NCBI GenBank assembly: GCA_046497485.1
Contig: JAWOFP010000041.1
Span: forward strand, 1 to 11,720
DNA from: Candidatus Nanohaloarchaea archaeon
GTDB taxonomy: Archaea; Nanohalarchaeota; Nanosalinia; Nanosalinales; Nanosalinaceae
Reading direction: 5' to 3'
DNA: 11,720 nucleotides
The translations under genes and the position numbers were made by a program. The notes under the pieces were generated by a model that worked only from the letters and a program-made list of their open reading frames with translations, searched no databases and was not told the DNA's origin. Positions 190 to 11,718 of this stretch are shown here, one piece after another. The first letter of the stretch is position 1; each line of letters opens with the position of its first letter.

Positions 190-354
190 TCAGTCTAACT
201 CTTCTATTATGTCTACTGTGGGAAGGTTTGACATGGTTCCGCCGTTCTTCCTGATTTTTACATCGCTGTTAAGGCCTTTCTCTTGTGTTACATATCCTCC
301 TTCTAGGAAGTATCCTTCTATTACTATATGAAGATCTTCTGAATTCCTGTCCAT
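190..354 (-). CDS. small acidic hypothetical protein, 54 aa
   Basis: Manual translation: MDRNSEDLHIVIEGYFLEGGYVTQEKGLNSDVKIRKNGGTMSNLPTVDIIEELD*. Co-oriented with its neighbours and similar in composition; no recognised family. Confidence 0.5.
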   Translation of the reverse strand: MDRNSEDLHIVIEGYFLEGGYVTQEKGLNSDVKIRKNGGTMSNLPTVDIIEELD

Positions 355-441
355 AAGGGTTTAGTCTTCATTCAATAGTTAAAAACTGTTATCTGTTTAC
401 TGAGTCTTTAACCAATCTATGTAAAGAGTTCTCCTAGTCTA

Positions 442-1530
442 TCATACATCTTCCATTAAACTATGTGTTCTTTCTTCCCTCTTACTTGATAGAACACTCT
501 CTATAACTTCAAGGTCTTCATCATCCGCAAGTATGACTCTTGAATCCTCTGAGTCGTCGATCGCGCCCAGCTCTTCTAAGAAATCTAGGACTTCCCCACT
601 GTAATCATCGTCTTTAACTTCCCGAAGCTTCTCAGACCCATCATTTCTTCTAAACGTTTCCAGGCCTCTACCTTCCAAATCTTGAATCACTTGATCCTGA
701 TTGAACTCCTCCAAAGTATCGAGGATAAGATCCTCATAGACCTCTTCTACATGTGATTCGACCTTTTCTAAAGCTTCTTCATCCTGAACCGTGTACTTTG
801 AGCCTCTGGACTCCAGCACATCCATAGTCACAAGATCGCTTAAATGCTGGCCTATCTTCCAGTTACTCCTCCTTGAATCAAGAAAAGAAGAGTCAAAGAA
901 GTTCCCATCAAAGGCCTGAACCGCATTAACTATACCTGGTCTCGCATATGGCCTTCTAATAGAGTCAAGATTTAGTTCGTCTCCTGAAAGATAGTTTATG
1001 TTAACTTCATCCGAATCATGTAACCTCTCCAATACTTCTTCCAAGCCTGACCTGTACTTCTGTTTCAGTCTGCCTTCATCATCCATTATTTTCTCACTCC
1101 AGTCTGACATGTTCTGAGATGAAAGAGGGGAGCTACCTGAAAAATTCTGATTCACGGATTCCCTGAATTCATCTCCCTGGGAAAGATCGTATAGTATGTT
1201 CCATTTCTTTACAGCCTGGTCTCCAATCGTTACAGTGTGGTCGCCGAATTCAAACTCGTAATTCCCAGGCTTCGCAACCAGTAGATTTTCAGAATCATAC
1301 AGTATATTCCTGTCATCCTCATCATAGAGATCAAGTGAAGGACCTCCTATCTCATCCGATATAACCTCTGATAACACGCTTAAGGCCTTGCGCTGTTCAT
1401 CTTTACTTTTACCCACAGTGATATGCCTCATATCTATGTCTCCGTATGCAGTTTCATCCAAGTCATCTACAAGTCTTATAGCAACGTTGTAGTAGATTGT
1501 GTGAAGTTTAGAATACTCTTGTTTCTTCAA
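442..1530 (-). CDS. acidic hypothetical protein with putative C-terminal tandem winged-helix domains
   Basis: 362-aa ORF. The TTG start is preceded by an SD-like AGGAGG. The C-terminal half aligns by eye with the protein of 3498..4127. Confidence 0.85.
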   Translation of the reverse strand: MKKQEYSKLHTIYYNVAIRLVDDLDETAYGDIDMRHITVGKSKDEQRKALSVLSEVISDEIGGPSLDLYDEDDRNILYDSENLLVAKPGNYEFEFGDHTVTIGDQAVKKWNILYDLSQGDEFRESVNQNFSGSSPLSSQNMSDWSEKIMDDEGRLKQKYRSGLEEVLERLHDSDEVNINYLSGDELNLDSIRRPYARPGIVNAVQAFDGNFFDSSFLDSRRSNWKIGQHLSDLVTMDVLESRGSKYTVQDEEALEKVESHVEEVYEDLILDTLEEFNQDQVIQDLEGRGLETFRRNDGSEKLREVKDDDYSGEVLDFLEELGAIDDSEDSRVILADDEDLEVIESVLSSKREERTHSLMEDV

Positions 1531-1677
1531 ATAGGAACCCCTCCTAATTCCTAATTAGATGTAAAAATTATATCCGTGTTCAAAAAATACTGGCGGAAAA
1601 CTTTCATAGAGTCATACAGATAATCGTTTGATCTCACCGAACGAAATATAACAAGGCCTTTCCAATACTTGCGGTGT

Positions 1678-2415
1678 ATGAGCATTGAATCCGAGGATCC
1701 TCTCAATGATGTCTCCTATATGTTCTCCGACATGACTGAAAACCTTGACGGTTTGGAAAGCTCCATAATCGAGTATCAAATAGCTGAATCGATTTACCAG
1801 AGGAGAATGGACCAGTATAGGCAGGGGAAGACCTCAAGACACGATGTGAAAAATGCTATGGATCACTTCGCCTTTACGGAAACTGAGATGATTTCAGAGG
1901 CCTCAAGAATCGGAGATTTAGCAGAGTTCATCCGGTCAGATTTCAGGGATCTAGGGCCTGAGGACGTCGTAGGTTTAGCGACTGAAAATGTTTTCATGGA
2001 TCATATGCTTGCTGAATCATCCTCCAATTACGAATGCGCTAATGACGACTTCTTGGAGAGTTTGGAAAGATACGAGGATATGTACCGGCATATGGCTAAG
2101 AAAGGAGAGTTACTCAGACAGTCAGATCAGGAAGAAGTCAGAGAAAAGATAGGTTACAGCTGGCGTGAAGCTTTTGCAAACGTGAAGGACTGGGAGGAAG
2201 ACAATACTGCCAATGTTTTCGACCCTGAAAATATTAGCGAAAAAAGAAACGATATAATAGCTGAAAGGCCTCGAGGAAACTATATTGATTTCCAAGAACT
2301 GTCAGGGACTGAAGATATAGCCGAGAAAAGAGAGGAAGTTCTAGATATCAGTGATGAAGATTTAGAGAATAAAAGAGATGAGGTAAAAAGTAGGGAGCCG
2401 CGTTACATCCAATAA
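1678..2415 (+). CDS. acidic helical hypothetical protein with C-terminal repeats
   Basis: Long D/E-rich ORF. ATG 1678 is preferred over the track's TTG 1669 because a TATA-like AAATATAA at 1644-1651 sits at leaderless-type spacing. Confidence 0.8.
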   Translation: MSIESEDPLNDVSYMFSDMTENLDGLESSIIEYQIAESIYQRRMDQYRQGKTSRHDVKNAMDHFAFTETEMISEASRIGDLAEFIRSDFRDLGPEDVVGLATENVFMDHMLAESSSNYECANDDFLESLERYEDMYRHMAKKGELLRQSDQEEVREKIGYSWREAFANVKDWEEDNTANVFDPENISEKRNDIIAERPRGNYIDFQELSGTEDIAEKREEVLDISDEDLENKRDEVKSREPRYIQ

Positions 2416-2417
2416 TT

Positions 2418-2981
2418 TTATCTTTCATCTATTTTCCAGAAGACATCCACTATGGCATCTTCCAGTTCTTCTTCGTCAAGGCCTCGGTCTTCTTCATATT
2501 CTTTTAGACCTTCTCTCAGGTTTCGCGCCAGTTCGTAGTTGTTATCTGATTTTTTGGCGGCTCTTGCAATCATATTTCTTTCGTCTTCCTCGTGCAATAT
2601 CTTCCCGAACTCCCTGACGTACCTTTCTCCATCAGAGTAAGCTAACTCGCTCATAATAAATTCGATCGGGTCTTCATCTATCTCTTCTGAAAAGGCCTCT
2701 GCAGATTCGTTGAAAAACTCTCTTACATATTCTGCTTCTTCTTCTAAGTCTTCGAGTAATAGGAAGTCTACCTTCTTTTCTACGTTATCTCTTAATTCCT
2801 CGTAATCGCTGCTGTTCCAGAATAAGTCTCTGACGGCATCTTCGCCTTCTCCTCCCTGCCATTTCTTTCCTTCTTCTCGGTTGGTCCTAGTTAGTTCTCT
2901 GAATTTGTTCGATGCCTCGACCATGTACCTGAACTTTATAGATTCTCTACAGGACTCAACTGGTTCAAAGATATCTGTCAT
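2418..2981 (-). CDS. acidic hypothetical protein
   Basis: 187-aa E-rich ORF, convergent with 1678..2415 across a 2-nt gap, with an AT-rich TATA-like stretch upstream. Confidence 0.8.
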   Translation of the reverse strand: MTDIFEPVESCRESIKFRYMVEASNKFRELTRTNREEGKKWQGGEGEDAVRDLFWNSSDYEELRDNVEKKVDFLLLEDLEEEAEYVREFFNESAEAFSEEIDEDPIEFIMSELAYSDGERYVREFGKILHEEDERNMIARAAKKSDNNYELARNLREGLKEYEEDRGLDEEELEDAIVDVFWKIDER

Positions 2982-3056
2982 TACAACACATCAATCTCAC
3001 ATAATAAAATTTATAACTGTTAAATGATAACAAGTCGACCATTACTATTATCTTTC

Positions 3057-3072
3057 GAGAATACGTATTCTC
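3057..3072. promoter_or_regulatory. perfect 16-bp palindrome, putative operator
   Basis: GAGAATACGTATTCTC is its own reverse complement. It ends 4 nt before the DUF2892 ATG, in a divergent intergenic region. Confidence 0.45.
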
Positions 3073-3076
3073 TACT

Positions 3077-3298
3077 ATGTTAGACATGGAAGTTAACGTT
3101 GGTAAGACCGATCAAATCTTCAGAGTAGTCGGCGGAATGATTCTAGGTGCTTTAAGCATCAATGCATTAATCGCGACATGCGTACCTGATATTTACAGTC
3201 CGGTATTTGGAGCAATCGCATTAATCTTTTTAGCGACAGGATTCTCAAAAAAATGCCCTGTCAACAAACTACTCGATAGAACAACTGTAGAGGAATAA
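3077..3298 (+). CDS. DUF2892 (YgaP-like) small membrane protein
   Basis: N-terminal NVGxxD..R motif, two hydrophobic segments and a C-terminal TG...CP...L motif typical of DUF2892. The start may be ATG 3086. Confidence 0.85.
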   Translation: MLDMEVNVGKTDQIFRVVGGMILGALSINALIATCVPDIYSPVFGAIALIFLATGFSKKCPVNKLLDRTTVEE

Positions 3299-3497
3299 AG
3301 GCCTCTAAACTTTTTCTCTTATTTTACCCGATTCGATATCCTCTATCAGGCCTTAATCGTCAAAAAACTTTCACTGAACACTTCTTTGACGTAGGCCTCT
3401 CTATCAACTATCCTCATTCCCTATTTTCTGTATCTGTTATTGAATCCAAACCCAATATAATGCCGTTATATTCATCAGCCTATTATTTAGAAAAACT

Positions 3498-4127
3498 CTA
3501 GTTTTCTCGCCGCCACTTATCTCCTGGGAATCTGGTTTCATACCTCTGCATCTCCTCGATATACTCATTTGGAAGGCCTCCACCTTCTCCCAAAGATTCT
3601 GCTACTGTTCTCCACTCGTCTCTGTTCTCCAGTAAATACTCGATATCTGTTCGGTCGGCTTCGAACTCTCTATTATCCCTATCCTTGATTAAATCGAGTT
3701 CTTCAAAAAGCCATACAGTAGAATCATGGTATCCGCCTCTATGAAAATTAATCAGTCCATCTTTTTCCAGGTTATCATACTCTATGAAGGTTTCAAGATC
3801 TTCAACCACCTCCGGTGCAAACTCTGTGGTACTCGCAAGCTTCTCAATTATCTTATACCTGTAAACTTGTTCAGCTAACTCCTCTGCTGGTTCAAGCGAC
3901 CTCACTACGCGATATTTGTTAGGCCTAGAGCTATGCTCTTGTTTATCTGCGATACCTGCTTGAGCTAGGACCTCTAGGTTGAAGCCTATCCTGCTACTAC
4001 TGTAGTCAGACCCGATATGCGGTGCCCTAACCCATTCCTGTTGATAATTACTCGCAGCCTCGATTATCCCAGGCCTCATCCGCGCTATCTTGTTTCTTCC
4101 TATACCTTGAAATCTGTCATCAGTCAT
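3498..4127 (-). CDS. hypothetical protein with putative tandem winged-helix domains
   Basis: 209-aa ORF. SSRIGFNLEVLAQAGIADK...NKYRV resembles a recognition helix plus wing; similar to the C-terminal half of 442..1530. Confidence 0.8.
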   Translation of the reverse strand: MTDDRFQGIGRNKIARMRPGIIEAASNYQQEWVRAPHIGSDYSSSRIGFNLEVLAQAGIADKQEHSSRPNKYRVVRSLEPAEELAEQVYRYKIIEKLASTTEFAPEVVEDLETFIEYDNLEKDGLINFHRGGYHDSTVWLFEELDLIKDRDNREFEADRTDIEYLLENRDEWRTVAESLGEGGGLPNEYIEEMQRYETRFPGDKWRREN

Positions 4128-4238
4128 ATGGAGATTTTCACAGAAGTTTTGTATCTTGATTTAACCAAGGTTTTTCTTGGACCCATAGTTCAGAAAATAA
4201 CTGTAATTATTTATAGTTGTAGAGTAACAACATTTCCG

Positions 4239-4610
4239 TTATTTTTCGAACTGGTCGAAAGTCTTCTGATACGCAGCCGGCAGCTCATACCATTCAAGGA
4301 AATTCTCGACACCTTGCTGCTGATTAATCATTCTATCCGCCCTCTGATCTGCATAAATCGCAAGCTCTCTATCACCCATTTCAAAGTAAATCTTCGCATT
4401 ACGATCATTCACTCTGAACTCATTCTCACCCGGCTCAATCAACAAGTCTCCCAAAATATAATCTGAGAAAACCCCTTTATGATAATTGAAATCATTAGCC
4501 GTAAACTTCGTGACATACTCTTCCCCGATGCCAAAATCATCGCCAGGCCTGTAGTCTTCTACCTCTGCCCAGTCAGAGTTGACAAATCTTTCAACCGCTT
4601 CCTTCGTCAT
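4239..4610 (-). CDS. acidic hypothetical protein
   Basis: 123-aa ORF with an ATG start and halophile-like acidic composition. Confidence 0.75.
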   Translation of the reverse strand: MTKEAVERFVNSDWAEVEDYRPGDDFGIGEEYVTKFTANDFNYHKGVFSDYILGDLLIEPGENEFRVNDRNAKIYFEMGDRELAIYADQRADRMINQQQGVENFLEWYELPAAYQKTFDQFEK

Positions 4611-4659
4611 ATCAAAGATACTCGAAAAATAACTTTTTCTACATAACCTCTCAAAGAAG

Positions 4660-5205
4660 TTAGTAGGAATCCTCCATTAACGACATTCTACCTGTTGCCT
4701 CCCATTCATCAGACTCGAGAAAAATCCTGTCACCGCCAGATAAAACTCCTTTAGAAGGCCTCAAACCCTGGATTTCTCTACCGAGTTCGTCAACCTTTTC
4801 AATAATCGCTCTTCTTACTCGCTCATTTACAGGTTCAAATCCTTCAGGAACATATTTCATCTCCTCAAACCTTACCTGGTTATCAGGTTCTTCGTTCAAA
4901 GATTCGAGAACACCATGAACTTCTTCTACAGTAACATGGGACTCGGTAGGCCTCTCAAGATCCAGTTTTTCATCGTAAAGCCCTCTCATAAAATCATAAA
5001 ACACTGTATGCATCAACGCAGGCTCCAAGTCAGCGAAATCTCTTTCAATCCCTTCAAATTCTGCTATCTCATCGTAGCGTGTCCTTCCGTCGTCGCCTAT
5101 TTCTCTGCCAAGAATAGCCTCGCCCCAGTAAGCAAGATTTTCATAATCCTCAGCTCCAAGATCATAACTATTATCTAGTTGAGTTGACTGCTTTTCAGTT
5201 GACAT
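4660..5205 (-). CDS. acidic hypothetical protein
   Basis: 181-aa acidic ORF with an SD-like GGAGGT upstream of the ATG. Confidence 0.8.
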   Translation of the reverse strand: MSTEKQSTQLDNSYDLGAEDYENLAYWGEAILGREIGDDGRTRYDEIAEFEGIERDFADLEPALMHTVFYDFMRGLYDEKLDLERPTESHVTVEEVHGVLESLNEEPDNQVRFEEMKYVPEGFEPVNERVRRAIIEKVDELGREIQGLRPSKGVLSGGDRIFLESDEWEATGRMSLMEDSY

Positions 5206-5331
5206 ATCTAGATTAGACCTCCGCTTATTTCTTTAATCTTATCCACTTCACGTGATTCGATCTCAGCGTTTAAAAAACTTCGGAGACAAGGCCTAATAGA
5301 AACATTATCTTCTTAACAGAATTAATCCCTT

Positions 5332-6291
5332 TTAGATATCGGCCGCTTTCTTCGCTTCCTCCCTCAATCTGTCCGCCTGTTCCTCCAAGTTTCCTGAAAG
5401 CTTCTCATCTCCTTGAGCCATCTTCAAGGCCTTTTCCGCTTCCGCTCTAACCTCTGAAAGCTCCTCTTTGAAGTCCCGTAAACCTGCTTCCTCCACTAAG
5501 AAATCTAAAAAATTGATAAATCCCTTAGCTTCTTCCTCAGTTCTCCTTGACTCCTCAAAAGCAGTCTCCACTTCATTCTCCAGTTTCCAGGCCTCATTCG
5601 CTTCCTGCTCAGCTTCTTTCCCGGATCTCTCCAAGTTTCTATAGACCTCCTGATACAGTTTATTCCCGACTTTCACCAGAGACTCATCTTTCCACTTTCT
5701 ACCGAGGCCTGCTGTCCCTCTTTCTTCCTTGAACTGAAGCCCATCTAAATCCTCATCAAACTCCGTCTCACTAACCATAAACGCTATCTCCTGCATAACA
5801 TGATTCTCAGTCTCCACAATCGCCCTCTCCTGGACGGCCTCAGTCATCAACATGTCAGCAATCCTTCTAGCATTCAACACGATATCTCTCTTAAACTCTT
5901 TATCGTAAGGCCTCTGTCTACCATCTATTTCATCCTTCAAGTACTGGAACTCTTTCTCAACGCCTTTTTCCTCATCAAAAACCATTTGAATCCTTTCAGC
6001 AAGCATCCCAAGATTCTGCTTCTCCCTCAAAATTGCGTCTTCCTCAATCTCAACACCCTGGACCTCTCTACTGACTTCAGACTGTTCCTCTTCGATTAAA
6101 CGGCCTTCCTCATTCTGGATAACCCTTCTAACTTCTTCCTCTGACAGGCCTGCATTGTATAATTTTTCAAGTAATTCTTCCGTTCCCCGTGCATCTGCAA
6201 AAGCAGACTCCTCAATCTCCTCGGCTTTTTCTAATTCTTCTCGAATTTTTCTTTCATTCTCCTTGATTCTGTCCAGGGAAAGATCAGTCAT
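5332..6291 (-). CDS. Glu-rich predicted coiled-coil protein
   Basis: 319-aa ORF rich in E/K/R/A/L and nearly Pro-free; TATA-like TTTTTATT about 25 nt upstream. Confidence 0.85.
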   Translation of the reverse strand: MTDLSLDRIKENERKIREELEKAEEIEESAFADARGTEELLEKLYNAGLSEEEVRRVIQNEEGRLIEEEQSEVSREVQGVEIEEDAILREKQNLGMLAERIQMVFDEEKGVEKEFQYLKDEIDGRQRPYDKEFKRDIVLNARRIADMLMTEAVQERAIVETENHVMQEIAFMVSETEFDEDLDGLQFKEERGTAGLGRKWKDESLVKVGNKLYQEVYRNLERSGKEAEQEANEAWKLENEVETAFEESRRTEEEAKGFINFLDFLVEEAGLRDFKEELSEVRAEAEKALKMAQGDEKLSGNLEEQADRLREEAKKAADI

Positions 6292-6334
6292 GTAACATAG
6301 TTAGAACTCCTAGAATAAAAATTATGGACTAAAA

Positions 6335-6359
6335 TTTGCCGGGGCGGAGATTCGAACTC
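6335..6359 (-). repeat. 25-bp direct repeat of the tRNA-Leu 3' end (att-like)
   Basis: TTTGCCGGGGCGGAGATTCGAACTC at 6335-6359 is identical to 6415-6439. Confidence 0.9.
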
Positions 6360-6416
6360 GAAGCTTTCTCTTGGAAGCTTCTATAATCAAATACCGCTAG
6401 AAATATGTGATTAGTT

Positions 6417-6499
6417 TGCCGGGGCGGAGATTCGAACTCCGGAACCCCTACGGGACGGGATCTTAAGTCCCGCGCCTTTGGCCACTCGGCAACCCCGGC
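6417..6499 (-). tRNA. trnL: tRNA-Leu (anticodon UAA), intronless, CCA not encoded
   Basis: The reverse complement folds as a type II tRNA: acceptor stem GCCGGGG/CCCCGGC plus discriminator A, anticodon arm CGGGA-CTTAAGA-TCCCG, long variable arm, T arm CGGAG-TTCGAAT-CTCCG. Confidence 0.97.
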
Positions 6500-6580
6500 T
6501 GCAATTTGAAGAGATAAGGCCTCTCTACAAACTTTTTTAGTGAACCAACTTTTTAATACGAGATACCAGAAAATTATACC

Positions 6581-6925
6581 ATGTTATTTATCCTTACATG
6601 GATGTTTGCATTAATACTTGTATTCTTTATCTCATGGGCTGCCTACTATTTCGGCGGAAACTTTGTAGTATTTGACGGAGTTTCAAAACAGGATGGAATG
6701 AAGTTAGCAGGACTGGAGATATTTTACGCTGCAATCGCATCCATTTTTAGCTTCATGCCGCTCGGAGGAATAGTTTCAGCCCTTCTAACCTTAGCATTAC
6801 CATTTATCATGGTAAAAGCAATTAAGAAAAAATTCGAGACAGGCCTACCAATCGCAATAATGGTCTACTTAGTTGCGACAGTTGGAAAACTATTAATTTT
6901 CGTACCTATGTATGTACTAACTTAG
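6581..6925 (+). CDS. small integral membrane protein (about 3-4 TM helices)
   Basis: 114 aa, strongly hydrophobic; TATA-like TTTTAATA at 6551-6558. Confidence 0.75.
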   Translation: MLFILTWMFALILVFFISWAAYYFGGNFVVFDGVSKQDGMKLAGLEIFYAAIASIFSFMPLGGIVSALLTLALPFIMVKAIKKKFETGLPIAIMVYLVATVGKLLIFVPMYVLT

Positions 6926-6955
6926 ACTAAAAATAAGTAGAAAAAAGTATGCGGA

Positions 6956-7531
6956 TTACCTAGGCTCCAAAATTTCTTGGAGCTCTTCCATTTTACTAAG
7001 AGCCTGTTTTCTTCCTCTGTTAGATCCTTCTTCATAGCTCATTTCTAGTTCAAGGTAAGGATTGTTCCCTATCTCTAGATCTAATTTGAAATCTTCAGCA
7101 TCAATTGAGCTTTCAACAACTTCGCCTTCTGAGACTAGAAGCTCGAAGAGACCATATCCATCTGTTTCATTAGGATCGGTTCCAGTAATGTCGGATCGTC
7201 TCTGAACTCTGTAACTTATATTGACTTCTCCATCTTCCACTTGTAGATTGAATTCACCGGGTACATCAGGCTGAATTCTTTCTCCATCATAACCAAATAT
7301 GCCTTCGAAAAGCTCAGTCTCCCATTCAGCCTCATAATGCTGGGTTTCCCTCGGCATATCTCGGCGTTCATTAAGCACAGGGCTTTCTCCTTCATATTTC
7401 AGAGCTGGACTATCGTCATCGTCACTTCCGCTATTCTTTTCGACTTCAGTGACTGAAGAATTATCTTCAAAATTTTCTTCTGGTGCTTCGCGTGAGAAAA
7501 ATCTGCCTTCTTCCTGGTCTTCTGGTCCCAT
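6956..7531 (-). CDS. acidic hypothetical protein
   Basis: 191-aa ORF with a low-complexity acidic N-terminus, directly downstream of rpoD. Confidence 0.8.
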   Translation of the reverse strand: MGPEDQEEGRFFSREAPEENFEDNSSVTEVEKNSGSDDDDSPALKYEGESPVLNERRDMPRETQHYEAEWETELFEGIFGYDGERIQPDVPGEFNLQVEDGEVNISYRVQRRSDITGTDPNETDGYGLFELLVSEGEVVESSIDAEDFKLDLEIGNNPYLELEMSYEEGSNRGRKQALSKMEELQEILEPR

Positions 7532-7588
7532 AACAAAGACTCATTAAGTAGAAAAATGTTAAAAAATGATGTTAGTATAGATTCACAA

Positions 7589-8149
7589 TCAAAGCTTTTC
7601 CTCAAACTCGTCAAGCTCTCTTTCAAGCTCTTCGACTGAGGCCTGTAGAAGCTCTTCGTTGCTGTATCCTGAAGTGGATTCGATACGGAATATAAAGTCG
7701 TCTCCGTCTTTTTCATATCCTACTGTTCCGCCCTGATGCTTTGCATGTTCTCTACCAGTTCCTAGAACTGCTGTAGCCTCAAAGTCAAGTTCCTGACCTT
7801 CTTTCAGTTTGACAAGAGCGATTTCATCGTTTACAGGCTCTGCTTCTTCGTTATCTGTCTGAATATCTCCAGACTTAACATTTACAGGACCTTCCTTCTT
7901 CACAGCGATGTGAAGTTCGTCTTCTTCATCAAACTTTTTCGGAATTTTGAACGGGACCATACCCATTCTGTTTGCTAAGTCTTCATCAAAAAGGCCTGAT
8001 TCATTCTGGATAACTTCTAATTCTTTGATAGAAAGAGTTGGTACTCTAGCCATCATAGATCTTCTTAGAGCGTTTGCTACTGCAGGATATGAGTCCTTCA
8101 GAGTTGCTTCTAGAACGCCGTTTTCCTCGTCTCCTAGTTCAATGTTCAT
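7589..8149 (-). CDS. rpoD: DNA-directed RNA polymerase subunit D (Rpo3), short form
   Basis: Motifs ANALRR, VPTL, N.S.LFDE.LA.R.G..P, G.G..HAKH and FIFRIES; canonical position after rps11 with an ATGA overlap. Confidence 0.96.
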
Positions 8150-8532
8150 ACTCTTCTACCTCTCTTTCCGCCTTTTTCTCGGCAGCCGTCGTGAGGTACC
8201 GGTGTAACGTCTTCAATATTTCCGACTTCAATGTCTTCGTTTCTAGAGATCGCACGGATAGCAGGCTGTGCTCCTTTACCCGGGATCTTGGACTTCTGTC
8301 CACCAGGAGCTCTCACACGGATGTCAACTTTTTCCAGGCCTTTCTCAGTGGATTCTTCAATCGCTTGATCCGCTGCTTTCATAGCAGGGAAGGCTCCACC
8401 TTGTAGACGGCCTTTGTCAGTCGCCATTCCTGATGTGATTCTTGAGAATGTTTCAGCTCCTGTTCCGTCTGTTACGTGAATTATAGTATTGTTAAAGCTC
8501 GAGTAGATGTGTACAATTCCTTTCTTAACCAT
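8146..8532 (-). CDS. rps11: 30S ribosomal protein uS11
   Basis: Motifs [20 protein letters not shown]...[11 protein letters not shown] and [11 protein letters not shown], with an archaeal GGKRGRRV C-terminus. Confidence 0.98.
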
Positions 8533-9083
8533 TATTCTTCTTCCTCCTCGGATTCTTCTTCGGTTTCAGAATCATTTTCTTCTGTCTCCTCTTCAACTTC
8601 CTCTGCTTCTTCAGGTTCTGGAGTTTCTGGCATATCAAGCTCAATGTTTTTCTCCTCTTCCTTTGTAAGCATGTAGCTTGGAATATTCACAACTTCGCCA
8701 TCCACTTTAACATGACCGTGGTTAACAAGTTGTCGGGCCTGATTTGGAGTATCTGCAAGGCCTCTTCTCTCTACTGCTGTTTGAAGTCTTCTGTTTAGAA
8801 TATCTTCAACTCTCAAAGTCAAAAGATCTGAAGGCTCTGCATCTGACTTAACTAGGCCTAATCTATGGGCTTTGTTAAGTACATCTTCTTCCTCTTGAGG
8901 ATTGTCTTCAGCAATCAGCTTTCTTGCCTGACGCCTGAATCCTCTTAGTTCTGAGTATGCTTTGTAAATCTCTTTTTTGTTTGCGAGGCCGTACTCATCA
9001 GTTAGCTCTGCCTCTGTATCCATTCTTTCCTGATTCCACGCATTGTTAGGCGTTTCATACTGTTTCTTAAGCTTCTTTACCAT
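8532..9083 (-). CDS. rps4: 30S ribosomal protein uS4 with acidic C-terminal tail
   Basis: Motifs YETP...W, YGLx[20 protein letters not shown] and PSY; TAATG overlap with rps11. Confidence 0.98.
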
Positions 9084-9105
9084 TATTTTTAGGCCTCTGT
9101 ATAGT

Positions 9106-9168
9106 TTATCTAACCCGGTTCTTAAGTTCCCGGTACTTTCTCTTTGCTTTTTCCTTTAAGTCCTTCAT
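9106..9168 (-). CDS. putative 20-aa basic peptide inside the ribosomal operon
   Basis: [20 protein letters not shown]. The ATG overlaps the rps13 TGA (ATGA), GGAGG lies 9 nt upstream, and the ORF fills most of the rps13-rps4 gap. Confidence 0.45.
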
Positions 9169-9632
9169 TCTTCGTCTCCTCCTTCTGATGCTTCAGCCTT
9201 AATGGAAGCTGTGTCTACTCCGATCTTGCTTCCTGTTCTGAAGCTAGACTTAGTCTTCTGTCCTCTTACAGGTAGTCCGATCTTATGTCTCCATCCTCTG
9301 TAAGATCCGATTTCCTTGTAGCGTCTAATATCAAATTCTTCTTTGAGCTCGAGGTCTGATTCGATTAAATGACCGTTGTCTCCTGTCTCCCTGTCGTCTC
9401 TCCTGTTAAGAAGCCATTCAGGTAGCTCAGGGTCTTTGAGCTCTTCTTCTATTTCATCGATTTCTTCATCGGAAAGGTCTCCGATTATCTGGTCTTTGTA
9501 ACCTAGCTCATGCGCAATTGCATGACCGTACATCTGACCGACTCCCTTGAGACCTGCGACTGCTTCTTCTACAGGCTTTGTTCCGTCGATTCCGGTACGG
9601 GCAATCCTTACTATTTCTTTTGTCTCGGACAT
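9165..9632 (-). CDS. rps13: 30S ribosomal protein uS13
   Basis: Motifs IVRIA, GLKGVG, PEWLLNRRDD.ETG and SYRGWRHKIGLPVRGQKTKS. Confidence 0.98.
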   Translation of the reverse strand: MSETKEIVRIARTGIDGTKPVEEAVAGLKGVGQMYGHAIAHELGYKDQIIGDLSDEEIDEIEEELKDPELPEWLLNRRDDRETGDNGHLIESDLELKEEFDIRRYKEIGSYRGWRHKIGLPVRGQKTKSSFRTGSKIGVDTASIKAEASEGGDEE

Positions 9633-9656
9633 GTGTAAACTAAGGCTCGGTTAAAT

Positions 9657-9665
9657 CTTATAAAG
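9657..9665. promoter_or_regulatory. TATA box of the rps13 operon, possibly shared with the divergent gene
   Basis: TTTATAAG on the minus strand about 25 nt before the rps13 ATG (leaderless spacing). It also reads TTATAAAG on plus, upstream of 9698; the intergenic gap is only 65 bp. Confidence 0.55.
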
Positions 9666-9697
9666 GTACTAAAGGTTGAGGTTGAACTTGGTTAATT

Positions 9698-10105
9698 ATG
9701 AGTTCAAGATCGGGAGAAGCCCTTGAAAGTCAAGCCGGGAAGCTATTGAATAAGAGATATGGCGAAGACTATATTGTTAGGAAAAATGGACTCAACAAAG
9801 AAAAATTTGAAGAGATTCTGAATAAAGGCGTTTTAGAAATAGACAAAGAAAATCGCGGATTTCCAGATGCAGAGAAGGAGCAAGATATTGTCGATGAAAT
9901 AAGGTTCTTGGAAGGATATCAATATGAACACCTGGACTTTGAAGATTTCTATATTTTTACAGGAGAATTCAAAAACGAGAGCTTCATAGGAGTCTCAACA
10001 GATCTAGATCACCAAGAAACTTCAGACCACTATACAAGACTCTATTTTTCGGACAGTATACCAGATAGAGATATTGGCTACATTCTTGAGGAAAAGCAGG
10101 CCTGA
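9698..10105 (+). CDS. acidic hypothetical protein
   Basis: 135-aa ORF with an ATG start, divergent from rps13. Confidence 0.75.
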   Translation: MSSRSGEALESQAGKLLNKRYGEDYIVRKNGLNKEKFEEILNKGVLEIDKENRGFPDAEKEQDIVDEIRFLEGYQYEHLDFEDFYIFTGEFKNESFIGVSTDLDHQETSDHYTRLYFSDSIPDRDIGYILEEKQA

Positions 10106-10108
10106 AAA

Positions 10109-10654
10109 TTAATTCAGGCGCTTTACATCAATCGAATCGTAGGCCTCGACTTCTCTACCCAAGTTTTGGACATCTGTCGCTCCATCAAAATTAACTAGAT
10201 ATAACTGGCCTTTATCTCCGCCGTAACTGCCGTCCATATCATAGACTAGGCCTGCGAAGACAGTCTCTTCAAAATCAGTTTGCTCGAGTAGAAACTCTAT
10301 CTGATTATCCACATTTCTCTCAACAAGTTTGCTAATTTCTTCCTGTTCAGTTCCTGTACCCGAAACCTCTCTATAGTCATCTGTAAGGCCTGAGTCCATC
10401 AATAATTTGATGTCGGAATTTATGCCTGTAGCTTCTCCATTGTAATCTGCCAGATCGGATTCAGAAAGATCTTCTGCATTAGGTAGGCCTTCATCCTCTT
10501 CAATCATGCCTAAAGTTTCATAGGTTGCTGTGACAGCTCCACAGCCTGTATGTCCTATGACTGCGACGACTGTTTCGGTGTCTGAGTGCTCCGGGATGTA
10601 GTCAATGCTTCCTGAAACCGCTTCTTCTCCTTCGCTCGTATAGGCATTTACATA
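10109..10654 (-). pseudogene. 5'-truncated beta-class carbonic anhydrase
   Basis: The frame of 10109..10507 stays open upstream to a TAA at 10655-10657 and reads YVNAYTSEGEEAVSGSIDYIPEHSDTETVVAVIGHTGCGAVTATYETLG. It has the GHxxCGA zinc motif, later VERNVDNQIEFL and GLVYD, but no CxDxR and no in-frame ATG upstream of the motif. Confidence 0.75.
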
Positions 10655-10829
10655 TTATATATCAATCTATTAGCCTTTTCAGAATTTCAAAGCCGCCTCT
10701 ATATTATCTAAATTAACCATATTACCTTGAAAATAAGCTTTATATTTAATAAAAAGATTCTAACAATTAAAAAGAAAAAACACAGTCTTAGAAGATAATT
10801 AAGAAAATAGTAAAATTCGGTTTATTTCG

Positions 10830-11114
10830 CTATTCCTCATCTACTTTCTTGATTAGATGCCATCCAAACTCTGTCTCAACAGGCTCGCTTATCTCCCCTT
10901 CATCTAAGTCAAAGGCCTTTCTCTCGAACGGTTTAACCATGTCGCCTCTACCAAACCATCCTAGGTCGCCGCCTTTCTTTCCTGAAGGTCCTTCAGATTT
11001 TTTCTTTGCCATTTCTTCAAACTCTTCCTTCCCTTCATCTAGTTCCTGTTTGATTTGACGGGCGTGTTCCCTATTATCTACGAGAATATGTTTTGCGCGT
11101 ACTTTCTGTGCCAT
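10830..11114 (-). CDS. ppiC: parvulin-type peptidyl-prolyl cis-trans isomerase
   Basis: Motifs AKHILV, F..MAK..S.GPS...GGDLGWF, MVKPFE..AF and SEPVETEFGWHLIK. Confidence 0.95.
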   Translation of the reverse strand: MAQKVRAKHILVDNREHARQIKQELDEGKEEFEEMAKKKSEGPSGKKGGDLGWFGRGDMVKPFERKAFDLDEGEISEPVETEFGWHLIKKVDEE

Positions 11115-11172
11115 GAAAATTATTTACCGGAGAAACTGTAAAAAGTTATTCAAATAAAGGCCTGAAATCTAG

Positions 11173-11718
11173 TCAATAACGTCTTCTCAATACCTCATCA
11201 GAATCTATATTTGAGTCGACAATAAGTTTGGACTCGTTTGTAGTATCAGGACATCTTTCGCCTTCAACCTCTTCTACAGGAACTGTATCTCCTACATCAA
11301 CTCTTTCCATATCAAACTCGAACTGTATATCTTCCGTCTCCTGTAAATTCCCGAACTTCATTGTATCTGTCTCCGAACTGAAGTACGCTCCAGTTCTCTG
11401 CCTATCTCCAGTCTCATTGTAAAGACATCCGCTGAAAGATGCGCCTTCTGAATCATAAGGTAGTACAGAGTTCTTTGAAACCATTAAATCTCCCGCATCT
11501 ATATTTTCTGAAACCGTTATCTCTTGTTTCAATTCATAGTCATAACTTACGTTTCCTGAACCAACGTCATACAATATAAGGCCTACTAACAGTATCAGAA
11601 GAGCTATTCCTGCTTTCTTCACTTGATTATTTGTAGGGCTAAACTCTTTCTGAGTTACCATATACCCTAATCCTGCAAAGATTCCGGACGAGACAATTAA
11701 TGAAAGCATTATTCCATC
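11173..11718 (-). CDS. membrane-anchored protein, probably 5'-partial
   Basis: The frame is open beyond ATG 11709 to the window edge. Two hydrophobic segments are followed by an acidic domain with two Cys. Confidence 0.7.
   Translation of the reverse strand, partial: DGIMLSLIVSSGIFAGLGYMVTQKEFSPTNNQVKKAGIALLILLVGLILYDVGSGNVSYDYELKQEITVSENIDAGDLMVSKNSVLPYDSEGASFSGCLYNETGDRQRTGAYFSSETDTMKFGNLQETEDIQFEFDMERVDVGDTVPVEEVEGERCPDTTNESKLIVDSNIDSDEVLRRRY

Follow-up and report, generated by a model that had tools for sequence, protein, structure and literature searches.

The DNA analyzed here is an 11,720-bp stretch (the window) of contig JAWOFP010000041.1 from a Candidatus Nanohaloarchaea archaeon, and the element under study is a short palindrome, AGGCCT, dispersed along it. 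An exact word count gave 40 copies, unassigned to a strand, of which the first begins at 272 and the last ends at 11584 (272..11584; shortest gap 43 bp). The copies start at 272, 662, 912, 1383, 1654, 1898, 2266, 2479, 2693, 3299, 3348, 3393, 3574, 3921, 4071, 4545, 4756, 4948, 5289, 5427, 5589, 5705, 5908, 6146, 6517, 6841, 7639, 7992, 8336, 8758, 8854, 9091, 10098, 10141, 10248, 10386, 10485, 10913, 11158, and 11579. In 200 dinucleotide shuffles of the window the word was found 2.33 ± 1.43 times (maximum 7) and none of the 200 reached 40. A sequence-only reading of the same DNA had proposed that AGGCCT resembles HIP1, the highly iterated palindrome (HIP) of cyanobacteria; its count of 40 sites was exact, whereas its roughly 20-fold enrichment was somewhat high, the shuffles giving about 17-fold.

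The copies make up 40 of the 51 GGCC tetranucleotides of the window, as had been reported, and all coordinates held on recounting. Nine of the remaining 11 are one-mismatch variants in which every change is at an outer base (848..10211, unstranded; 848, 949, 1954, 5835, 6101, 8408, 8735, 8986, and 10206), again exactly where they had been placed, and the last two are CGGCCG at 5340 and TGGCCA at 6479. All three codon phases are used (seven sites read Arg-Pro, ten x-Ala-x, and 14 x-Gly-Leu), and eight sites lie between genes, among them three at 3299..3398 (unstranded) spaced by 49 and 45 bp; both points had been made previously. Nine sites in all fall outside our gene list, the ninth being that at 272, inside a doubtful 55-codon open reading frame (ORF). 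On the minus strand, rpoD (7589..8149) has both of its possible positions filled, at 7639 (Gln-Ala-Ser) and 7992 (Ser-Gly-Leu), uS11 (8146..8532) its only one, at 8336 (Lys-Gly-Leu), and uS4 (8532..9083) two of three, at 8758 and 8854 (both x-Gly-Leu). The parvulin gene (10830..11114, minus) carries a site at 10913 (Lys-Ala-Phe), and uS13 (9165..9632, minus) has none at its three possible positions and lies within the longest site gap of the window (1007 bp). Pfam matches agree with the names that had been given to RpoD, uS11, uS4, and parvulin and likewise support uS13. The tRNA-Leu(TAA) gene (6417..6499, minus) has no internal site, the next being at 6517. An exact 25-nt direct repeat that duplicates the 3′ end of this gene (6335-6359 and 6415-6439, 80 bp apart) looks like an att-type integration scar, and the ORFs to its left mostly lack a Pfam match.

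The signal is not confined to the window. The source genome (G000; 967,558 bp, 41.5% GC, 66 contigs) contains 3,249 copies, about one per 300 bases, spread over all 66 contigs at 1.8-5.8 per kb each. AGGCCT is the top hexamer of G000 under an order-2 Markov model, with an observed/expected ratio (O/E) of 6.35; a maximal-order model gave an O/E of only 1.09 because the 5-mers are themselves built from AGGCCT. An assembly artefact had also been raised. However, 12 other assemblies carry the same enrichment, and contigs of run X1, which may be the source sample, show 0-2 differences from the corresponding pieces of the window. Among other words, G000 avoids ACGT (O/E 0.49), GTCGAC, and GTTAAC; the AGGCCT-poor genome G024 avoids ACGT words too.

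Whole-genome contrasts used G000 and G005 as positives and G024 as the negative; G010, also positive, was represented by 380 of its 1,119 kb and G018 by 20 kb plus small loci. When codons were shuffled synonymously within each of 1,050 G000 genes (our own ORF calls), the 2,814 coding copies were reduced to 378 (7.4-fold), the observed and shuffled counts by phase being 507/91, 973/118, and 1,334/169. The density in non-coding DNA was 3.87 per kb, versus 3.29 in coding DNA. At the positions where the protein permits the word (650, 1,480, and 2,065 by phase), G000 uses it at 78%, 65%, and 65%, against 7.7%, 4.5%, and 5.7% expected from codon usage elsewhere. The ln odds ratios over the three phases were 3.4-3.8 in G000, 3.5-4.0 in G005, and 3.5-3.7 in the 380 kb of G010, versus -0.2 to -0.8 in G024. 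Some force raises the odds of AGGCCT 30-50-fold wherever it is possible, in all frames and in spacers, and the suggested genome-wide, DNA-level signal survives nulls that keep amino acids and codon usage. AGGCCT is written in even at the cost of changed proteins: peptides that it can encode outnumber the reversed controls 1.72-fold (4,195/2,438), 1.92-fold, and 1.78-fold in the positives, versus 1.03-fold in G024.

Conserved and variable genes had the same fraction of possible positions filled (0.70-0.75), and the fraction fell to 0.58 for G000 genes that have no match in G024. A few G000 genes are nearly site-free (1/17 and 4/20 possible positions filled), a pattern expected of recent imports. 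Sites arise by substitution, only 35 of 1,345 lying near an alignment gap. Close to rRNA operons the sites are mostly in spacers. Within the 16S rRNA of G005 (L050), one AGGCCT lies in a helix whose opposite strand has changed to compensate, and G000, G010, and G024 have a one-base variant there.

Sites also keep their distance from one another. When observed pairs were compared with permutations among possible sites, close pairs in G000 were depleted (O/E 0.19 at 5-9 bp, 0.37-0.42 at 10-19, 0.58-0.69 at 20-39, and about 0.8 up to 100 bp); G010 behaved similarly but more mildly, and in G005 the closest pairs gave 0.32, followed by 0.74-0.80 up to 24 bp and about 1 beyond. The ratio of short to long pairs in G000 was 0.38 for AGGCCT, as compared to 0.71-2.09 for non-overlapping abundant hexamers, and its counts over 0.5-1 kb were under-dispersed (variance/mean 0.70-0.76). 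In three genera (G000, G005, and G010) T is frequent at -4/-3 of the flanks (TT preferred) and scarce at -1. This preference extends to non-coding DNA (T at -3: 0.44-0.46 versus 0.30-0.31). The scarcity of T at -1 partly reflects stop-codon avoidance, though non-coding DNA shows it as well, markedly in G005 and faintly in G000; all four bases occur there and no seventh base is fixed. The outer-base variant AGGCCC is enriched 2.4-fold in G000 and 4.2-fold in G005 versus 0.3-fold in G024, whereas inner-base variants are genome-wide equal to G024 or lower. AGGCCT is slightly over-represented 16-25 bp ahead of starts and immediately past stops, shows no fixed-distance peak relative to TATA-like boxes, and has no significant kb-scale period in G005.

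These data bear on two explanations. The first, that a context-specific mutation bias or codon-pair habit makes the word without any reader, has simplicity alone in its favor. The excess survives synonymous shuffling in all phases, spacers are as dense as genes, no particular inner neighbor is drained in G000, and AGGCCT sites repel each other, which other abundant hexamers do not. We regard this explanation as highly improbable and largely refuted already. The second is direct selection for sites that a chromatin or nucleoid protein binds: occupancy of each site would be slightly beneficial, and of two sites falling within one footprint only one would be bound. Exclusion strongest below about 20 bp, a 14-bp extended palindromic preference in G000, G005, and G010 that extends to non-coding DNA, the under-dispersed counts of G000, and the retention of sites between positive congeners (below) are all in keeping with it, and it explains the footprint-sized exclusion and the flanks equally well as the molecular drive discussed later. 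However, no 10-bp oscillation was visible in flanks or pair distances, no diagnostic residue of the main histone separated 10 positives from 20 others (other paralogues and Alba lay outside this comparison), and a small winged-helix candidate occurs in 38 of 70 genomes, mostly negative. A structural system wholly absent from congeners would also be hard to picture. Chromatin binding is a possible but rather doubtful explanation.

Across the phylum, AGGCCT was compared with its reversed control word in 70 genomes. The ratio was 4.3-17.2 in 13 genomes, the positives, and 1.63 or less in the other 57. Positives span four genera: g1 (5/5, G004 weakly), g7 (3/3), g19 (3/3), and g2 (2/6). An RpoA′ tree covering 30 genomes placed each genus in its own clade on an unresolved backbone; G005 and G060 grouped together (93/80) within g2 amid four negatives, and the weak G004 was sister to the positive G003. 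Within a single genus, the bias can be active in one species and inactive in another. Sites are kept at orthologous positions between positive congeners, a check that the sequence-only reading had called for: 19/30, 17/23, 14/24, 26/41, and 9/18 were intact at 41-49% fourfold-site identity, versus 3/35 in G004 and 8/107 in g2 negatives. The peptide trace, scored as possible positions against G024, is kept in G004 (27 vs 21) and absent from the g2 negatives (87 vs 91). These small samples suggest decay in G004 and gain inside g2. A possible alternative is a single origin of the trait with later losses. Genome-wide, positions possible in both G000 and G005 but not in G024 were 2.3 times as many as expected (controls 0.88 ± 0.19), an excess that speaks against separate gains and that either shared ancestry or convergence could produce.

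Individual loci were also scored. L271 (titled Ca. Nanosalina sp. VS9-1) has 87 copies in 20,195 bp, L273 (titled Nanohaloarchaea archaeon SG9) has 83 in 20,195 bp, and L303 (titled Ca. Nanosalina sp. J07AB43) has nine in 20,192 bp. No substitute hexameric HIP was found in negative loci of 6-20 kb. The G005 histone, 92% identical to its G000 counterpart, matched records titled Nanohaloarchaea at 81-100%, which places the window in this group. L285, from a record titled Colwellia polaris, encodes a nanohaloarchaeal histone (88% identity); the label looks wrong. Among the 80 of at least 122 viral loci scanned, none was nanohaloarchaeal by protein match. A phage-like 42.9-kb IMG/VR contig with a non-acidic proteome (L398, L478, and L479) contains 33 AGGCCT in 10.2 kb (about 21-fold) and 67-72 CGATCG in 20 kb, and encodes C5 and D12-type methyltransferases; 12 related loci have 0-10 AGGCCT sites. 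This contig is a possible independent HIP-like case outside Archaea.

HIP1 is associated with methyltransferases, a link carried over to AGGCCT in the sequence-only reading. We found no DNA methyltransferase common to the positives, three families being searched across genomes and others by motif in G000 and G005 (PF02086, PF02384, and PF05063 lay outside the family searches). G000 encodes one C5 methyltransferase (L001, C53), divergent from an McrBC-like gene pair. Nine of 41 genomes contain the C5 family PF00145, which is lacking throughout G001-G005, G010, and G022; of these, G005, G010, and G022 are single-contig positives. PF01555 exceeded the cut-off in one of five positives, and the sole PF07669 match of G000 is a 166-aa protein, in our reading an enzyme that methylates proteins. 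Neither of the two DNA methyltransferases of G005, one type I and one type IIG, is matched in G000, and sites are almost lacking from the type I locus (0/3 and 0/5 possible positions filled), which therefore looks recent. A class I S-adenosylmethionine (SAM) methyltransferase common to G000 and G005 was rejected, as it occurs in only three of 50 genomes. In the negative G024, an NgoPII-family endonuclease and a C5 methyltransferase are encoded (L003 1456-3375) and all GGCC words are avoided. NgoPII is specific for GGCC, and such a restriction system offers one route to the absence of AGGCCT. G020, which has few AGGCCT, encodes a methyltransferase of similarly high score.

A methylation-directed ratchet of the kind advanced for cyanobacterial HIPs would require a methyltransferase that escaped detection, being of an unusual family, recently lost, or delivered by a host or virus. 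The outer-base near-match bias and the local saturation agree with the Elhai model as given in the accessible text of PMC4390886. AGGCCT contains GC, G000 has its one C5 enzyme, the AGGCCT-rich phage-like contig encodes another, and a methyltransferase is proposed to have passed between a nanohaloarchaeon and its host (PMC11001535, in the part available). The results above argue against a ratchet: PF00145, PF01555, both G005 enzymes with their recent-looking type I locus, and the class I SAM enzyme. The available portion of a nanohaloarchaeal methylome study gives GDGCHC only (PMC10266531), for a strain that may or may not be AGGCCT-rich. We consider the ratchet unlikely.

Self-recognition during DNA uptake had also been suggested. 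Such a system, akin to the DNA uptake sequences (DUS) of Neisseria and the uptake signal sequences (USS) of Pasteurellaceae and working by a route other than ComEC, would be in keeping with the rewritten proteome and even spacing, and HIP1 is reported to raise cyanobacterial transformation (10.1101/2024.09.10.611283, seen in excerpt). However, the ComEC family (PF03772) was found in none of five genomes versus 10 of 14 controls, which weakens the suggestion. Moreover, the 250-300 bp spacing and the exclusion below 100 bp would need fragments far shorter than the 0.5-1.7 kb tracts matched to the spacing of DUS in the accessible text of PMC2397512. Uptake is very unlikely.

An active DNA-level force, uniform and locally saturating, maintains AGGCCT as a highly iterated palindrome. 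Our leading explanation, held tentatively and put a little short of even, is that a site-reading protein biases local repair or conversion and thereby acts as a molecular drive. We favor it because the bias takes no account of gene class or position and is dispensable in congeners, because it overrides amino-acid choice as uptake sequences do, for which proteome rewriting is reported (PMC2817400, in part), and because it shows the local saturation near existing sites that the HIP1 ratchet model predicts (PMC4390886, same portion). A dimeric protein would read unmethylated AGGCCT, tolerating changes at the outer base and weakly preferring TT at -4/-3, and would bias short-patch heteroduplex repair or gene conversion toward the site-carrying allele. 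Sites born by point mutation would be transmitted preferentially, even when an amino acid changes. A second site within reach of the first would gain little, so that sites would exclude one another locally and their density would level off near 3-5 per kb; loss or alteration of the reader would let sites decay, as may be the case in G004. The reader might be a conserved protein whose specificity has shifted, or might come from a gene outside our distribution tests. In our judgment the chances are even that some nanohaloarchaeal lineages have gained, more than once, either a sequence-specific drive that acts through conversion or repair without methylation or a sequence-specific chromatin reader, and that this system rewrites the whole genome and proteome toward one palindrome.

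Several observations weigh against a repair or conversion drive. Its reach varies, from about 25 bp in G005 to about 100 bp in G000 and G010, and the steep loss of pairs below 20 bp is as compatible with a steric footprint as with a repair tract. Site conservation does not tell drive from selection, and that of HIP1 was interpreted as selection in the accessible text of PMC5861425. G024 is the single whole negative genome and, with its GGCC-type restriction system, an imperfect control. None of 13 candidate driver genes fitted, each being present in negatives or missing from positives. NucS is general, occurring in positives and negatives alike (5/5 and 27/30 genomes; sequences compared in five), and an AddAB-like pair is shared by two positives (G000 and G005) and the negative G024, the B-like subunits being 39-42% identical.

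Candidates were drawn from a gene-content contrast of G000 and G005 with G024, which 57 of 1,111 G000 proteins passed. The distribution tests left about 45 of these aside, most read as transport, metabolic, or RNA-modifying proteins; they include a Cdc6 paralogue, an integrase, an Mrr-domain membrane protein, and an HD hydrolase. In addition to the winged-helix protein, distribution led us to reject a PolB2-type polymerase (present in negatives G014, G020, G059, G061, and G063 and not in G022, G057, and G058), DnaG, an alkyltransferase-like protein, a SWIM protein, a 402-aa protein of no assigned function, a 218-aa protein family (atlas clusters all hypothetical), a PD-(D/E)XK-like protein, and a coiled-coil protein. 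A histone that seemed to differ (92% identity between G005 and G000 vs 53% for G024) was a missed-ORF artefact, the true orthologue being present in G024, and the identity of RadA tracks lineage rather than the trait. Family-wide, RadA falls into two classes of identity to the G005 protein (76-90% and 64-67%), the lower found in g19, g16, g20, and part of g21, which suggests replacement. The archaeal DnaG of G005 has no match in the near-complete G024 and G018. The AddAB-like pair, a PD-(D/E)XK protein and a UvrD helicase (G000 C62 17323-22499, L069, and L121), was found in three nanohaloarchaeal genomes, and a metagenome scan with AddB gave three further loci, all short.

HIP1, whose origin is tied to methyltransferases, has awaited an explanation for three decades. 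A signal of the same kind now appears in 1-Mb archaeal genomes without a common methyltransferase, present in some species and missing or decaying in others of their genus. With such small genomes and on/off pairs, the search for a reader becomes a finite experiment. A force that changes proteins also bears on studies of codon use, selection, and phylogeny in these archaea, and AGGCCT can serve as an easy marker when contigs are binned or gene imports dated. If a methylation-independent drive or reader proves true, Archaea would have their first system of this kind, and HIP-like repeats would need no methyltransferase.

Chi sites, which act with RecBCD or AddAB, are likewise short over-represented words, and an AddAB-like helicase-nuclease pair is encoded here. 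However, AGGCCT is palindromic and the pair is also present in a negative genome. A Chi-like polarity was not seen: the AGGCCV sense/antisense ratio of 1.6-1.8 holds on both strands and in both halves of G005 and follows the gene strand only (the origin was not mapped). The same word is the target of a StuI-type restriction-modification system of Alcanivorax borkumensis SK2, where it is methylated (PMC12128166, in the part available). That is a classical restriction-modification target, whereas the enriched archaeal genomes have no such common system. DUS and USS resemble AGGCCT in their thousands of copies, roughly doubled encodable peptides, and scarcity in new genes (accessible text of PMC2817400 and PMC2397512). 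They differ in being non-palindromic 9-10-mers; AGGCCT is a palindromic hexamer, 3-4 times denser, without a ComEC match, and its close pairs are avoided whereas those of DUS and USS serve in terminators (same sources). The likeness to HIP1 (GCGATCGC) and alternate HIPs, on which the sequence-only reading was right, is broader: a dispersed palindrome in all frames and spacers, origin by substitution, orthologous conservation, outer-base near-matches, and a patchy occurrence across relatives (PMC4390886, PMC5861425, and PMC13756078, each in part). The HIP of Synechococcus sp. PCC 6312, CAGGCCTG, is an octamer with the same six-base core at 0.37 per kb (PMC5861425, same portion). AGGCCT differs in being archaeal, a hexamer, and present at 2-5 per kb, in being neither GCGATCGC nor a listed octamer variant, in the lack of a common cognate methyltransferase among positives, and in its measured short-range exclusion. 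HIPs show a quasi-periodicity of tens of kb; the best period of G005 was 32.5 kb, with a power of 9.14 versus a threshold of 9.25 on a red-noise background. Our literature search, which left most subscription journals outside its coverage, found no description of a nanohaloarchaeal AGGCCT signal. AGGCCT is a real, strong, and apparently undescribed archaeal highly iterated palindrome that is HIP1-like and DUS-like in behavior, yet fails membership of both.

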